Position numbers and translations under genes: made by a program. Positions 21,028-25,497 of a stretch of 36,893 bases of DNA are shown here, piece by piece. Source of the DNA: Patescibacteria group bacterium. GTDB lineage: Bacteria; Patescibacteriota; Minisyncoccia; UBA6257; HR35. The notes beneath the pieces were generated by a model. That model was not told the DNA's origin and ran no database searches. It saw only the letters and a program-made list of their open reading frames with translations. The DNA lies in contig JBBTQG010000056.1 in the NCBI GenBank assembly GCA_038065795.1, positions 1 to 36,893 on the forward strand, in the 5' to 3' direction. Each line of letters opens with the position of its first letter. The first letter of the stretch is position 1.

Positions 21028-21915
21028 TTAATTTACTAAATTATTACTTAAAAATAGCTTTTGATAATGTACTATTCGCTCCCTTAATGAGCTAATTACA
21101 CCATTGAGTATTTTATATGGAACAACTGTTTCTGCCTGTAATTCCCTTAATAAACTATCTCTCCAAATTTTTCTAAATTCAGTGTTTATATGAACGATTT
21201 TAATGCCATTTTTAATAGCGTTTTTGAAGTCTTTATCGGTCAACCCTGACCCACCATGTAAAACAAGCCCTGAGAATAACTTAAATTGTTGAGTGCGTTC
21301 ATATATATCCTTAATACGCTCAAAGTCAATTTGCATTGAATTTATCGCAGGAATACCATGAATATTGCCAACAGATATTGCGAGTAAATCAACGCCGGTT
21401 TGTTGTAAAAAATTTTCAGCGTCTTCAGGTTTTGTAAAATTTTTTTCATCAAGCTCAACTGTTCCACCTATATCAGAACTTCCCGGAAGATATCCAATCT
21501 CGCCTTCAATTAGAATTTCTTTATTATCATTTTTTGTTCTACTACTCTCTTCGAAACTTTTCACTTCCTTAGTTCGCAGAATATTATTATTTAAATCATT
21601 TTGTTTTTCACTTGTCAAATCAAAAAGAACAGAATCAAACGAGTTGTCAATTGCTTCCTTTGATGATTCTACACTTTTGCAATGGTCGGCATTTATAAAC
21701 ACTGGTAGTCCCCTATTCTGAGCTTCACCTACCCAAAATTTTATATTTTTAGTATCTAGATATTTTCTTTCTCCTTCAGACGCGCCAAAAATTAACGGGA
21801 TACGAGTTTCTTGAACAGCTTCAATCCCAGCCTTAAATTGTTCAAATGTAGCAATATTATAATGAAGTAAGGCTTGATTAGATTTCAAATTTTGTAAAGC
21901 TTGTTTTAGGGTCAT
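21028..21915 (-). CDS. fba: Class II fructose/tagatose-bisphosphate aldolase
   Basis: LLHYNIATFEQ, INADHCKS and LVLHGGSG motifs. The start is taken at the internal Met (MTLKQAL) because the longer ORF would abut tRNA-Ser. Confidence 0.75.
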   Translation of the reverse strand: MTLKQALQNLKSNQALLHYNIATFEQFKAGIEAVQETRIPLIFGASEGERKYLDTKNIKFWVGEAQNRGLPVFINADHCKSVESSKEAIDNSFDSVLFDLTSEKQNDLNNNILRTKEVKSFEESSRTKNDNKEILIEGEIGYLPGSSDIGGTVELDEKNFTKPEDAENFLQQTGVDLLAISVGNIHGIPAINSMQIDFERIKDIYERTQQFKLFSGLVLHGGSGLTDKDFKNAIKNGIKIVHINTEFRKIWRDSLLRELQAETVVPYKILNGVISSLRERIVHYQKLFLSNNLVN

Positions 21916-21953
21916 TAAAAAATTATACCATTGTATGATAAAATTAAACAATT

Positions 21954-22041
21954 GGAAGGGTGCCAGAGCGGTCCAATGGAACGGCTTGGAAAGCCGTGAC
22001 CCTTCGGGGTCTCGTGGGTTCGAATCCCACCCCTTCCGCCA
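21954..22041 (+). tRNA. tRNA-Ser (anticodon GGA), CCA encoded
   Basis: Acceptor GGAAGGG/CCCTTCC, anticodon stem ACGGC/GCCGT with loop TTGGAAA, a long variable arm, T arm GTGGG-TTCGAAT-CCCAC, then GCCA. Confidence 0.9.
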
Positions 22042-22183
22042 AGTTTCCCGATAACTTCTTTATATTTTTGTAGTGGTTTAAGAAAAAAATTCTGGATAAT
22101 TTCGCTCAAAACAAAAACACCGGATATTACCGTCTGAAAAACAATACTTTGAAATAAATTTAATAACCAATTCATTTATTTTT

Positions 22184-22732
22184 TTATCTATCACCGAATA
22201 AAGTTTTAAATCCAGCAGTATTCACCCAAAAATTCTGCGGGTTGTGGAGTAAATATTTTTTAATCTCTTTTCTTTGCGTTGCTAGTTTTTCTCCGCCATT
22301 CGTTTCGCTTAAAAGAATATTGGAATAGCTGCCATCTAAAAATGCGATATAAGAGATATTTTTATTCTGTTCCTTTAAACTAATAATTTCAATCAATTCG
22401 GCGATTTGTTTATCTTGTCCGCCGCCGGAAGTATTTAAATGTTTTGCCTCGCATAAAAATATTTTACCATTCACTTTAATAATCAAATCCAATTTTTTAT
22501 TTTGTTTCTTGGTAGCCAATCTAATGCCTAAATTTTTACGGACATTTTTTACGCTAAAAATCTTTGAAAATTTGGCTACACATTTTCGCTTGTTTAAAAA
22601 TTCTTTCCATTTTTTAACCTCTTGAAAATCATTTTTTGTAAGAATACGCAAAAGTTTTTTCTCTCCGCATCTCCCTTTTTTGCGCGATGAGTTCGTATCC
22701 AATATCGCCTGCACCCACTTTTCCAGCGCCAT
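22184..22732 (-). CDS. PD-(D/E)XK nuclease, DpnII/MboI-like restriction endonuclease core
   Basis: KKLDLIIKVNGKIFLCEAKHLNTSGGGQDKQ gives D-x13-E-x-K followed by a Gly-rich SGGGxxK. This mirrors DpnII (FDFVIK..LIEVNFYSGSGSKLNE) as recalled from memory. Confidence 0.55.
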   Translation of the reverse strand: MALEKWVQAILDTNSSRKKGRCGEKKLLRILTKNDFQEVKKWKEFLNKRKCVAKFSKIFSVKNVRKNLGIRLATKKQNKKLDLIIKVNGKIFLCEAKHLNTSGGGQDKQIAELIEIISLKEQNKNISYIAFLDGSYSNILLSETNGGEKLATQRKEIKKYLLHNPQNFWVNTAGFKTLFGDR

Positions 22733-22783
22733 TTCATTCAGCGCTCTTTTGATAAAATATCTTTCAGTAATTTTTTATTATTT

Positions 22784-22996
22784 TTAAATTTTTCCATTTG
22801 ACCAATTTTCAAAACAACTTTTACATAGGTAAAGATTGTTGTCATTTATTGGTTCTTCTATATCAAAAGTATCAAAATTTTTATCTTCATTATAATTTCC
22901 TTTTTTATCTATATTGTATTTAACCCAAACTTTTTGTAAATTAAACCTTGAATTTTTATTGCAGTAATAACATTTTATAAAATTTTCTTTATTCAT
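22784..22996 (-). CDS. Small zinc-ribbon protein (CxxC...CxxC)
   Basis: 70 aa with CYYC near the N-terminus and CKSC near the C-terminus. It starts 11 nt after the upstream gene. Confidence 0.5.
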   Translation of the reverse strand: MNKENFIKCYYCNKNSRFNLQKVWVKYNIDKKGNYNEDKNFDTFDIEEPINDNNLYLCKSCFENWSNGKI

Positions 22997-23007
22997 ATTT
23001 TTTTATG

Positions 23008-23637
23008 TTAATTATTCATATTTTGCTCCATTATTCTTATGAAATTAGACAGAGATGTGGCATCAACACCGGTTCTGTAATAACAATCCTTATATTTTTT
23101 CCAGCCAGTTCTTGTTCCATGTTTATTAAATTCCTCAAATTCTTTTACAGTTAATAAAACATTTCTGTTGCCATTATTATTTAATAATTTTTTAATTATA
23201 TTTATTTTTTCACCATTAGCCTCATCTATTAACGAAATTATTTGTTCAGCAAATCGAGTGGTTAATGGAATTTCATTTTTTGTTGTTGATGATGTTATTT
23301 TAATGCTAATTTTGCTTCTATCTATATTTTGAGAGTTCTTATCGTCTAAATTTCCACCTAGACACTTAAGTAATATACAAGCTTTGTAAAATTCAATTTG
23401 ATAAAATTCAGTAGTGTTTATTCTTTTCAGTACCTGTTTGCATATTTTTTCAATAACTAAAACTTTTGTACTTTCAAAATCAAAAATAGCTAATTTATTT
23501 TTCTTTGATTTCTCATTACTTTCGAAATATCTATGTGCATTTTTTGCTCGCTCCAAAGTTCCAATACCTATTTTACAAACATCTTTAATATTGTGCTCAA
23601 AAATATACAAAATTTGTTTTTCAGTTGTCTTGCTCAT
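23008..23637 (-). CDS. T5orf172/GIY-YIG-like N-terminal domain protein with an unassigned C-terminal domain
   Basis: ILYIFEHN..VCKIGIGT..RAK...IEKICKQVLKR..TEFYQI fits the T5orf172 pattern (hYhh...KIG.T...lE..h...l...r..EFF). The C-terminal ~110 aa have no recognisable motif. Confidence 0.45.
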   Translation of the reverse strand: MSKTTEKQILYIFEHNIKDVCKIGIGTLERAKNAHRYFESNEKSKKNKLAIFDFESTKVLVIEKICKQVLKRINTTEFYQIEFYKACILLKCLGGNLDDKNSQNIDRSKISIKITSSTTKNEIPLTTRFAEQIISLIDEANGEKINIIKKLLNNNGNRNVLLTVKEFEEFNKHGTRTGWKKYKDCYYRTGVDATSLSNFIRIMEQNMNN

Positions 23638-23697
23638 ATTTTTTATTTCTTTAATTGTAAATCGATATAAAACATATTCTTCACAACTTATAATTGA

Positions 23698-24051
23698 CTA
23701 TATTGAAACCTGATACAAATCTTCAAAACTTGAATGTATTCCAGAAAAAAATATTTCTTTGGTTTTTTGGTCCGCTTTGTTTTTGTGCAAATACGGCGGA
23801 TTAGTACAAACAAATTTATATTCTTGAGGAAGATTTATTGAGTCATTATAAAAAACATTGCTATTATCAACATATTTTCTATCGCAATCAAAACCAATAA
23901 CTTTTTTGGCATTACTTTTCTTTGCCCACTTAATCAAATCTTGGTTTCCTGCAAAGGGGTCGGTAACTTCCTCATCTTTTATAAACTTTTCTAATCCTTG
24001 CAGAATAAGATCTGAGTTTGTTGTAAAAAATTGTCCAAATTGCTTTTTCAT
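23698..24051 (-). pseudogene. N-terminal half of a gamma-class N6-adenine DNA methyltransferase (truncated)
   Basis: GQFFTT (motif X), TDPFAGNQDL (motif I) and NPPY (motif IV) occur in that order. The ORF ends at TAG about 30 codons after NPPY, at DLYQVSI, with no motifs V-VIII or target-recognition domain. Confidence 0.65.
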
Positions 24052-24256
24052 AGAGAGAATTTATCCTATTATCATTTTACCGGATTTTTAAGATTTGTTC
24101 AAATTCTGTCGCACGCTAATGCACGATAGGATTTCGGCGAGCGGGCTAAAAGTCAGCGTCGGGATTTTTCGTAAAATAGGTTCGGATTTTAACCAAAAGG
24201 CACCGCCAATTTTCTTTTATAAAAGAAAATTGGCAAAAAGCGAATGCTTTTTGCCC

Positions 24257-24547
24257 CTATATCACATAGTATTCACAACTTTGGGGACATATTAGCCTTG
24301 GCTCTCCTTCCGTTGTAAGTTCAAGTGAAAGCCCGCAACCTTCTCTGGAATAACCATTGGTACAAACACCGTCAACGCCCTCGTAAAAAACAACTCTGAT
24401 TGTCTCAGGTGTCATTGGTATACAAACCTGAGTTGACCAACGCTCATACCTCGATTCAAATTCGGCATCCATTACAAAGAAGCCGACCTTAACCGTCAGA
24501 TCTTTCTCGATTAAGATTTTGGGGCATTGAACTTCAACCGAGCTCAT
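24257..24547 (-). CDS. Hypothetical small Cys-rich protein in a G+C-richer segment
   Basis: 96 aa with 7 Cys and a GAAAGG about 14 nt upstream of the ATG. Its composition is visibly richer in G+C than neighbouring genes. No family recognised. Confidence 0.4.
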   Translation of the reverse strand: MSSVEVQCPKILIEKDLTVKVGFFVMDAEFESRYERWSTQVCIPMTPETIRVVFYEGVDGVCTNGYSREGCGLSLELTTEGEPRLICPQSCEYYVI

Positions 24548-24726
24548 TTATGCATCTGCCTTTCTCGTGAAATTTTCTACTTATTATTTTAATCCTCCGG
24601 TATTTTTTTGTCAACCCCGTTAAAAGTTTATCACGAATTATTTTTAGTCCTTATTTTTAATCCGAATTCACCCTATCGGCTTGATTTAAATTTACCCAAT
24701 AAATAGACTTAAAACTTCTAACGGGG

Positions 24727-25497
24727 TCAAATACCTAAAACCGGTGTTAAAACCAATGTTTTGTCTTCAAAAATCGCGAGAGTTGCTTCAAAATGAGCTG
24801 AAACCGAATTGTCTTCTGTTCTAAACGGGCATTGAGATGGATTGCACTGCAATGAAAACTGGCTACTTATTGAAGCCATTGGCTCAATTGTAAAAATCAT
24901 CCCACCCTTTATTTTATTTCCTGTCCCCGGGTCGCCAAAATTCAAAACCTGTAAATTTCCGTGTAAAAATTCTCCTATATCATGCCCACATAAATCTCTT
25001 ATTGGCTTAAATCCATAATCCATTATTGTGCTTTCAACCTCCCATCCAATATCGCCAAATGTATTTCCTGCCGCGGTAATCTTTATCGCATTTTCTAATG
25101 CCTTACGAGTTGCTAATATTAATTTTTTATTTTCTTTGCTTATTTTCCCTGCCCCAACTGTTATTGCGGCATCGGTAAAATAATTTTTAAATTTCACGCC
25201 TAAATCTAAAGACACAATGTCCCCATCTTTAATTATTAAATTTTCAGAAGACAACCCATGAACAACAATTTCATTTATTGAAACGCACAGAGAATACGGA
25301 TAAGGTTCTTTGCAAAAATTTGGATGATAATTTTTAAATGCTGGTTTTGCCCCTGCCTCTAAAATTAATTTTTCAGCAAGTGCGTCTAATTCTGAAGCTT
25401 TCACGCCCGGTTCAATTTTTTCTTTCAAAATTTTTAAAACCGAAGTCAGAATAGTTCCACCTTCCCGCATAATTTCAACTTGTTCACTAAAAGTCAT
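24727..25497 (-). CDS. map: Methionine aminopeptidase type I
   Basis: Metal-ligand contexts VVHG, DLGV..YFTD, GHDIG, FTIEP and HFE; 256 aa. Confidence 0.85.
   Translation of the reverse strand: MTFSEQVEIMREGGTILTSVLKILKEKIEPGVKASELDALAEKLILEAGAKPAFKNYHPNFCKEPYPYSLCVSINEIVVHGLSSENLIIKDGDIVSLDLGVKFKNYFTDAAITVGAGKISKENKKLILATRKALENAIKITAAGNTFGDIGWEVESTIMDYGFKPIRDLCGHDIGEFLHGNLQVLNFGDPGTGNKIKGGMIFTIEPMASISSQFSLQCNPSQCPFRTEDNSVSAHFEATLAIFEDKTLVLTPVLGI

Follow-up and report, generated by a model that had tools for sequence, protein, structure and literature searches.

A 36,893-nt stretch of a Patescibacteria genome (contig JBBTQG010000056.1, assembly GCA_038065795.1; "the window" below) carries, between tRNA-Ser(GGA) and map, what is probably a dead type II restriction-modification (R-M) operon, the central ~1.05 kb of which has been replaced by a selfish, homing-type cassette of ~0.9 kb encoding two orphan proteins. 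We assign this reading a probability of about 0.68. Four open reading frames (ORFs) run in the same direction on the minus strand: gene i (23698-24051), gene ii (23008-23637), gene iii (22784-22996) and gene iv (22184-22732), with spacers of 60, 11 and 51 nt. An earlier annotation made from the sequence of the window (the original prediction) had described these four ORFs, and all of them were recovered at the same coordinates and with the same gaps. It had offered two readings: an R-M island in decay into which a selfish T5orf172 gene had moved, and a methylase-independent defense module. The former is the one borne out by comparison, given that intact relatives consist of methylase (M) and endonuclease (R) only, and that a bounded cassette recurs in divergent R-M loci.

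The window matches a 53-kb contig from the 0.1-µm fraction of Hainich groundwater at 99.9-100% identity, and the locus is identical in this and three more independent Hainich groundwater assemblies; an assembly chimera could therefore be ruled out. The gene ii loci available for comparison came from species-representative genomes (17 loci), metagenomes (39 loci) and exact-protein look-ups (eight loci), and their neighboring genes were mapped by tblastn.

Genes i and iv as opposite ends of a single R-M operon

Gene i (117 aa) is the 5' remnant of a gamma-class N6-adenine methylase. As originally noted, it carries motifs X, I and IV (GQFFTT, DPFAG and NPPY) and stops 30 codons past NPPY; its matches to methylase profiles are confined to their N-terminal third (positions 4-101 of 325 in phrog_18657), and it shares 71% identity with residues 1-117 of the intact 378-aa methylase of locus L001. 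Homology to methylases runs past the gene i stop codon to about codon 128 (~23677; in tblastn, methylase residues 1-128 correspond to 24051-23668). Set beside intact relatives of 378-387 aa, gene i is without the C-terminal ~250 residues, and has neither the motifs beyond IV nor the target-recognition domain that a complete methyltransferase would show. Upstream, homology to the R-M loci L001 and L003 reaches ~40-60 nt beyond the methylase ATG, and a promoter-like TTGAAC-17-TAAAAT is found at 24102-24074, ahead of gene i. The leader and promoter region of the operon was placed at 24052-24109 (minus strand) on this nucleotide homology and promoter-like sequence.

What is left of a type II endonuclease of the DpnII/Tsp45I family is its 3' part, gene iv (182 aa). 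The DpnII-type core that had been predicted is present, with a spacing of x12 rather than x13 (D82-x12-E95-x-K97, then SGGGQDK); in an alignment with full-length relatives D82, E95, K97 and SGGGQDK are invariant, and the PD-(D/E)XK core is kept. The nuclease had also been called apparently intact, and in this respect the prediction failed. Gene iv passes the Pfam cut-offs for DpnII and Tsp45I over profile positions 164-246 of 278 only, and it aligns to the last ~180 residues of homologues that are plentiful in Patescibacteria (80-90% identical, 302-305 aa), its first ~107-125 residues being missing. In-frame homology extends above the gene iv ATG to ~22774, where a stop codon follows (KITERYFIKRALNE versus KIAQRYFEKRxLNE in relatives), so that codons ~108-303 of 303 are represented, the N-terminal third is lost, and gene iv is not a full-length endonuclease. 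A sequence search of the PDB with the endonuclease profile found no solved relative.

In intact operons of this type (L001, L002, L030, L031), the genes for a methylase of 378-387 aa and an endonuclease of 303-304 aa overlap by 38 nt, and nothing intervenes; in L029 only the uninterrupted endonuclease is seen, the contig beginning inside that gene. The window keeps methylase codons 1-~128 and endonuclease codons ~108-303, and ~1.05 kb of operon, from methylase codon ~129 to its end and endonuclease codons 1-~107, is gone. Truncation of both genes precludes R-M function at this locus; genes i and iv are best explained as freshly made pseudogene fragments, by-products and not partners of the cassette. 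The branch leading to the endonuclease remnant of the window (R'), beyond the border tract described below, has 24 synonymous and eight non-synonymous changes and no frameshift, and R' was therefore under selection until very recently; judged by this pattern, the intact look of gene iv appears to reflect its youth, not function.

R-M operons of this type are found in unrelated contexts elsewhere, such as after rpoC (L001) and after queH (L030). In another Patescibacteria contig (L003:4647-6651) the M-R operon is shattered by frameshifts and has no cassette; this R-M family evidently decays often.

Extent, identity and junctions of the cassette

The cassette (22768-23675, minus strand; ~908 nt, boundaries ±10 nt) comprises gene ii (209 aa), gene iii (70 aa), a short leader and a spacer. 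The window is AT-rich (~31% GC) and the cassette lower still (25-27% GC). The order M-fragment, ii, iii, R-fragment is common to the window and its closest relatives by layout: L012 (Parcubacteria), L013 (Falkowbacteria), L015 (Saccharibacteria), L016 and L032-L034. Across these loci the sliding nucleotide identity is 0.93-1.00 within 23668-22785 and 0.6-0.8 outside it, with an abrupt fall at both borders. Over whole segments, the cassette is 0.95-0.99 identical, the methylase remnant (M') 0.69-0.83 and R' 0.69-0.85; for the window in particular, 95-97% identity to the cassettes of L012, L013, L015, L016 and L032 compares with 70-79% in the flanks. Near-identical cassettes are found within comparable operons of many groundwater bacteria that are not related to one another. 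The cassette identity of 95-100% spans synonymous sites as well as the non-coding leader and spacer, and purifying selection on the proteins therefore cannot explain it.

The left end of the cassette (GTGTTTT..GATTGATTTACAATTAAAG..ATG) is constant, and is fused to at least six different methylase positions: codon ~128 in the window and most other loci, ~228 in L013/L033, ~251 in L004, ~140 in L037, ~35 in L014/L035/L060, ~76 in a clade of loci with 79-80% identical gene ii (the 79-80% clade), and just after NPPY of a second methylase family in L038/L068. The right end lies a few nucleotides past the gene iii stop codon; the endonuclease sequence joined to it begins at codon ~108 in most loci and at codon ~45 in L037, and in L038/L064 it belongs to a second endonuclease family. 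The joins fall in A/T-rich microhomologies, and neither terminal inverted repeats nor target-site duplications were found at the cassette ends. The segment from methylase codon ~251 to endonuclease codon ~45 is absent from all cassette-bearing loci of the first R-M family (family 1).

A splice-like AAG/GTGTTT at the left end led us to consider a group I or group II intron. This was rejected: the element replaces two gene ends, is AT-rich, and has neither intron structure nor a reverse transcriptase. In L004 (5978-6436; also in L005-L007) a gene for an IS200-type Y1 transposase sits exactly at the junction of the cassette right end and the endonuclease remnant.

Evidence for repeated and recent invasion

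Alleles with and without the element occur at the same locus, the intact L001, L002, L030 and L031 on the one hand and the window, L012-L016 and L032-L038 on the other. The R' of the window is 86-90% identical in amino acid sequence to intact R proteins, versus at most 68% to any other cassette-bearing remnant; those of L012/L015/L032 interleave with the intact protein P0115, and L016 and L004 are separate again. The cassette-bearing endonuclease remnants are thus not one clade, and from the affinity of the window R' to intact genes and the interleaving of the others, at least three to four independent acquisitions follow. The history of the cassette is decoupled from that of the host gene, and younger. 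A second M-R family, only 31-39% identical to the first, has likewise been invaded (L038, L048, L064, L068).

At both borders of the cassette the flanking sequence is donor-like over a short distance. On the right, a tract of ~90 nt inside the endonuclease remnant (22690-22775, minus strand) is 0.73-0.87 identical to the cassette-bearing L012/L013 versus 0.60-0.71 to the intact L029/L030; below ~22685 the pattern reverses, with 0.84-1.00 identity to intact L029 and mostly 0.6-0.8 to L012. Nearly half of the window-specific substitutions in R' (31 of 63) are within its first ~34 codons. On the left, a tract of ~40 nt at the end of M' (23677-23720, minus strand), which includes the TAG of gene i, is 0.87-0.91 identical to the cassette-bearing L012/L016/L032/L066 and 0.54-0.71 identical to intact or longer methylase genes, whereas M' upstream of it resembles L028/L001 instead. 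The terminal TAG of gene i is itself common to L012, L016, L032 and L066. By these similarities, both are co-conversion tracts.

Taken together, the empty site, the identity contrast, the affinity of R' and the donor-like tracts indicate a repeated, recent, homing-like invasion. The alignments show the mobility of the cassette, its preference for this kind of locus and its copying by recombination.

The proteins encoded by the cassette

Some ~90 homologues of gene ii, with lengths confined to 205-213 aa and identities to 57-91%, are distributed over Patescibacteria, Bacteroidota, a cyanobacterial metagenome-assembled genome (MAG) and Kapaibacteria. When 1.84 billion representatives were searched with the family profile (A2), a single full-length cluster was returned, together with some fragments and two proteins that are only distantly related. 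One of these two, P0221 (E 5e-5 in 1.84e9 proteins), can be aligned with family residues 1-102 (hhalign 95.6%, E 1e-8) and passes the Pfam threshold for T5orf172 (25.5 bits versus a cut-off of 20). It is only transitively, via P0221, that the sequences link gene ii to the T5orf172/GIY-YIG nucleases: the T5orf172-like character given in the original prediction holds in this indirect form, and a direct Pfam match at E ≤ 1 is missing. Residues Y11, K22-I-G24, R30, E63 and E77-F-Y of gene ii are invariant in 18 sequences and align with the GIY, YIG, Arg and Glu positions of these nucleases; by analogy they have putative catalytic roles. We therefore annotate residues 1-~100 as a predicted T5orf172/GIY-YIG-like domain.

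The C-terminal domain of gene ii (residues ~122-209, 23008-23273) is modeled by AlphaFold2 (AF2) as a compact alpha/beta fold (pLDDT 86-90). Foldseek searches of the PDB and BFVD with the full gene ii model and with this domain gave no match with E<0.7. The domain resembles the hemimethylated-GATC-binding C-terminal domain of SeqA (3fmt_B; TMq 0.58, E 3.3, non-significant); given the DpnII and DpnI neighbors of the family, this resemblance is at most suggestive. Two other matches were set aside: a Pfam match of gene ii to the TOTE Mu-Gam-like domain, below cut-off (E 0.006), and, from a PDB sequence search with the gene ii profile, a chance-level match of choline-binding repeats to GWKxYKxxWYY.

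Gene iii, as predicted, encodes a 70-aa CxxC...CxxC protein, a zinc-ribbon specific to the cassette; we could not identify any family match for it in Pfam, NCBIfam, PADLOC or PHROG beyond noise in PADLOC (E 0.035). Among 5.8 billion proteins its family amounts to only nine clusters; for at least two, the contig has the same length as one bearing gene ii. It is present in the clade of loci with at least 86% identical gene ii and missing from half of the family loci. In the 79-80% clade, several ii copies of which are located outside any R-M operon, it is swapped for a 33%-identical zinc-ribbon (L043/L044) or an unrelated ORF of 75-78 aa; this ORF is conserved (MKKNKQTK..EYLVIGSNNFWYA..) and lies downstream of ii in L039, L042, L046 and L017.

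Distribution of gene ii across R-M loci

Some 50 of 60 gene ii loci are inside R-M operons (this and the following counts are not de-replicated). About 25 have the layout M-ii-(iii)-R in DpnII-type operons, and about 25 have a Tsp45I endonuclease, then ii, then a beta-class methylase; ~10 are without a detectable R-M neighbor. The Tsp45I-type loci (among them L008, L019, L021, L023, L027, L047, L050, L052-L054, L059 and L067) have no gene iii, and their beta-class methylase is always without its N-terminal DPPY motif, the point of 5' truncation being variable. In these loci ii is younger than the adjacent endonuclease gene at synonymous sites (dS 0.33 versus 0.91 in L021/L023), and the endonuclease is full-length and under purifying selection, with a ratio of non-synonymous to synonymous change (dN/dS) of 0.07-0.16. 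In the DpnII-type layout R' is frameshifted in cassette-bearing L013/L033, cut to ~55 codons in L014/L035/L060/L061, and split from the cassette by the IS200-type gene in L004-L007.

Two further remnants were seen beside members of the family. A fragment of a DpnI-family (methyl-directed GATC) endonuclease is directly upstream of a frameshifted ii copy (L017:326-721), the third kind of restriction gene adjoining this family. Upstream of a Tsp45I-type gene, L020:1920-2261 is an ORF that starts like the N-terminus of a beta-class methylase (…HLIITSPPYW…) and continues staphylococcal-nuclease-like (Pfam SNase, E 3e-9); it looks like a chimeric remnant.

A homing model and its alternatives

In the model we favor, gene ii would encode a T5orf172/GIY-YIG-type site-specific endonuclease, with the zinc-ribbon protein iii possibly a DNA-binding helper. 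The endonuclease would cut cassette-free R-M alleles within the segment missing from all cassette-bearing alleles; for family-1 loci, this places the candidate target between methylase codon ~251 and endonuclease codon ~45. After resection, a cassette-bearing donor, probably DNA acquired from neighboring cells, would serve as the template for mending the break, and the cassette would be copied together with a few tens of nucleotides of donor flank, that is, homing with co-conversion. Occasional joins mediated by microhomology would give rise to new junction types and to jumps into more distant R-M families.

Several observations weigh against this model. Cleavage of DNA by ii is putative, and gene ii has no Pfam match at E ≤ 1 to PF10544 (T5orf172) or PF01541, nor any direct match in NCBIfam, PHROG or PADLOC. 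The AF2 model of its N-terminal domain has the order beta-beta-alpha-beta-alpha-alpha at low confidence (pLDDT 45-59), and the best GIY-YIG structures found by Foldseek, I-TevI (1ln0, E=2) and 1zg2 (E 5.5), fall short of significance. No relatives of gene ii were found in a scan of viral contigs. Between loci the flanks are 70-80% identical in nucleotide sequence, low for ordinary homologous repair, and invasion of the 31-39%-identical R-M family cannot be homology-driven. None of the loci compared has the insertion without the deletion. The donor-like tracts are only ~80-90% identical to sampled cassette-bearing loci, and the true donor is therefore unsampled. Finally, a constrained nuclease beside a DPPY-less methylase is not explained by simple parasitism. 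This last point would be accounted for, in the ~25 Tsp45I-type loci, if ii were a methylase substitute: ii might also act on DpnII/Tsp45I-superfamily endonucleases, by repressing or neutralizing them or by occupying their sites through its C-terminal domain, and so replace the methylase as protector. We consider such an additional role distinctly improbable.

The main rival to homing is passive spread by transformation, in which DNA taken up by naturally competent ultra-small bacteria recombines through M'/R' homology with no cutting encoded by the cassette, and the cassette is kept because loss of R-M, or some other function of ii (a regulator, or restriction alleviation), is advantageous. 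The mosaic flanks show recombination and are silent on what initiated it; R-M decay without the cassette exists, as in the frameshifted L003; domesticated T5orf172 repressors such as CapR are known (PMC10448857); and the well-folded C-terminal domain of ii could be a DNA-binding domain only, to judge from its model. On the other hand, exchange points ~40-90 nt from the cassette, across flanks of 70-80% identity, would be inefficient without a break, and passive uptake has also to account for at least three to four acquisitions at the same endonuclease codon, for entry into the 31-39%-identical R-M family via microhomology joins, and for putative catalytic positions of the T5orf172-like domain that are all invariant across phyla. 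We hold passive spread to be unlikely. More doubtful still is the insertion-sequence (IS) or small-transposon alternative, with ii as transposase and the variable methylase junctions as adjacent deletions. One conserved cassette end joined to many upstream positions is what IS-mediated adjacent deletions also give; however, this would be a transposon with no terminal inverted repeats or target-site duplications, whose product resembles no transposase family in Pfam, NCBIfam or PHROG scans, and whose insertions fall almost exclusively in R-M operons, every time in the orientation of the operon. The donor-flank tracts point to copying by recombination instead, and we rate transposition as highly improbable. 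A single ancient insertion, inherited vertically and conserved by purifying selection while the flanking pseudogenes drift, would fit the gene order and orientation common to all loci and the codon-108 endonuclease junction found in most. It is contradicted by cassette identity of 95-100% at synonymous and non-coding sites, by flanks with low dN/dS-type change and not drift, by the greater similarity of the window R' to intact genes than to the remnants in other cassette-bearing loci, and by hosts that span different Patescibacteria classes; vertical inheritance of one old insertion was rejected on these grounds and is hardly credible.

The other reading in the original prediction was a functional, methylase-independent nuclease or defense module of ii, iii and the shortened iv, in which ii (and iii) would replace the N-terminus of iv, or control or neutralize it. 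That reading rested on an intact nuclease and, the nuclease being truncated, is unsupported. The prediction had itself named in advance, as evidence against a module, close relatives with an ordinary two-gene R-M system lacking the extra ORFs, and this is what the close relatives have. There are points in favor of a module: the iv ORF is uninterrupted with all PD-(D/E)XK core residues kept; ii is beside DpnII/Tsp45I-superfamily nucleases in two operon layouts, and once beside a DpnI-family fragment; the Tsp45I-type nuclease is intact and constrained beside a DPPY-less methylase, as if ii possibly made it tolerable; and the C-terminal domain of ii has its weak fold resemblance to the GATC-binding domain of SeqA (TMq 0.58, E 3.3). 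Yet R' is dispensable where the cassette persists, being frameshifted, reduced to ~55 codons or split off by an IS200-type gene; no nuclease adjoins ii in ~10 loci; iii is missing from half of the loci; ii and iii match no PADLOC-DB 2.0 model, and i and iv match only generic methyltransferase and restriction endonuclease models. The intactness of iv is accounted for by recency, and both the in-frame stop codon preceding iv and the weak context of its start look like accidents. We consider a module of this kind very unlikely, and homing into an R-M operon the better account of the locus.

Relationship to known systems

In phages, T5orf172 genes are documented to be homing-endonuclease genes, and they commonly occur together with zinc-finger DNA-binding modules of the CxxC..CxC type (PMC10448857), which the separate zinc-ribbon gene iii parallels. 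The cassette has much in common with the GIY-YIG/T5orf172 homing genes of phages (seg and mob of T4, and those of ICP1; PMC10448857): a small gene standing by itself, in which a predicted GIY-YIG-type domain at the N-terminus is followed by a separate C-terminal domain, an associated Cys4 zinc module, presence/absence polymorphism at one locus, an element far more conserved than its surroundings, and co-conversion of donor flank. It differs from them in being chromosomal (in Patescibacteria and Bacteroidota) with no copy in the viral contigs scanned, in having an R-M operon and not an essential phage gene as its target, in replacing ~1 kb rather than inserting cleanly, and in its zinc ribbon, which is a separate 70-aa gene; ii, moreover, is an orphan family below Pfam T5orf172 detection, its cleavage activity presumed. 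The neighbors of phage homing genes can also be split or truncated, as in the case of mobE and nrdA of phage Aeh1.

The DpnII/MboI- and Tsp45I-type R-M systems (PF04556, PF06300) are the source of genes i and iv, the latter keeping the D..ExK..SGGGQDK core; unlike in those systems, both M and R of the window are truncated. As in R-M decay mediated by an IS or by frameshifts (the IS200-type gene of L004, the frameshifts of L003), restriction and modification are lost together, but here the agent is a specific, recurrent, near-identical cassette that prefers R-M operons. CapR of the Vibrio PLE satellites, a domesticated relative of T5orf172 homing endonucleases that acts as a repressor (PMC10448857), is a precedent for T5orf172-type proteins with zinc-finger modules being repurposed for regulation, and so for one way in which ii could silence a neighboring nuclease; CapR and ii have no sequence similarity beyond the superfamily. 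A literature search of incomplete coverage returned T5orf172 homing genes of phages but no account of an R-M operon invaded by one. Homing genes of the free-standing GIY-YIG/T5orf172 kind are known as such; what differs here is the candidate-phyla chromosome, the R-M target, the ~1 kb replaced and the orphan family.

Neighboring features of the region

The region is bounded by tRNA-Ser(GGA) (21954-22041, plus strand; detected by ARAGORN and Rfam) and, on the opposite side, by map (Peptidase_M24; 24727-25497, minus strand). The original prediction had called the island tRNA-Ser-flanked. We found no integrase ORF and no repeat of the tRNA-Ser 3' end at the far side, and a tRNA-linked integration island was rejected; the tRNA gene is a neighbor only, outside the element. 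In Rfam searches at gathering and permissive thresholds, it was the sole match in and around the region. An 86-aa ORF running antisense through tRNA-Ser (21915-22175, minus strand) is almost certainly spurious, yet is annotated in public contigs (L071:4463-4723).

Between the R-M remnant and map there is a discrete unit (24203-24614, minus strand) of ~40% GC against a background of 31%. The unit comprises a promoter close to the consensus (TTGACA-17-TAAAAT, 24614-24586), an orphan ORF of 96 aa rich in Cys (24257-24547; its cluster has three sequences and no family match) and two tandem terminator hairpins (24255-24232 and 24236-24203); its RNA fold has a z-score of -4.1, with no Rfam match. 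It could represent a small protein or a non-coding RNA. A 33-nt inverted repeat (24597-24629/24712-24744; 73% complementary, core GACCCCGTTA/TAACGGGGTC) pairs the surroundings of the map stop codon with a site ~80 nt downstream, and is possibly a terminator or an attenuator-like long hairpin.

Implications

R-M systems are selfish and addictive, and are the main barrier to gene flow among bacteria. In several classes of Patescibacteria, a compact element repeatedly and recently disables both R-M genes at once, and relatives of gene ii are also present in Bacteroidota and at least one cyanobacterial MAG. For annotation this carries a warning: blocks of the form "M fragment, unknown, Zn-ribbon, short nuclease" in candidate phyla are wrecked R-M operons, not new defense systems. 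If ii does substitute for a methylase, it would be a new, methylase-replacing selfish gene and a new kind of restriction antidote. If the cassette is truly homing, it would parasitize what is already a parasite and act on restriction barriers as a natural "gene drive", which would bear on DNA exchange among ultra-small groundwater bacteria; gene ii would then add an orphan nuclease of the T5orf172-like kind, new and perhaps with a long specific target.

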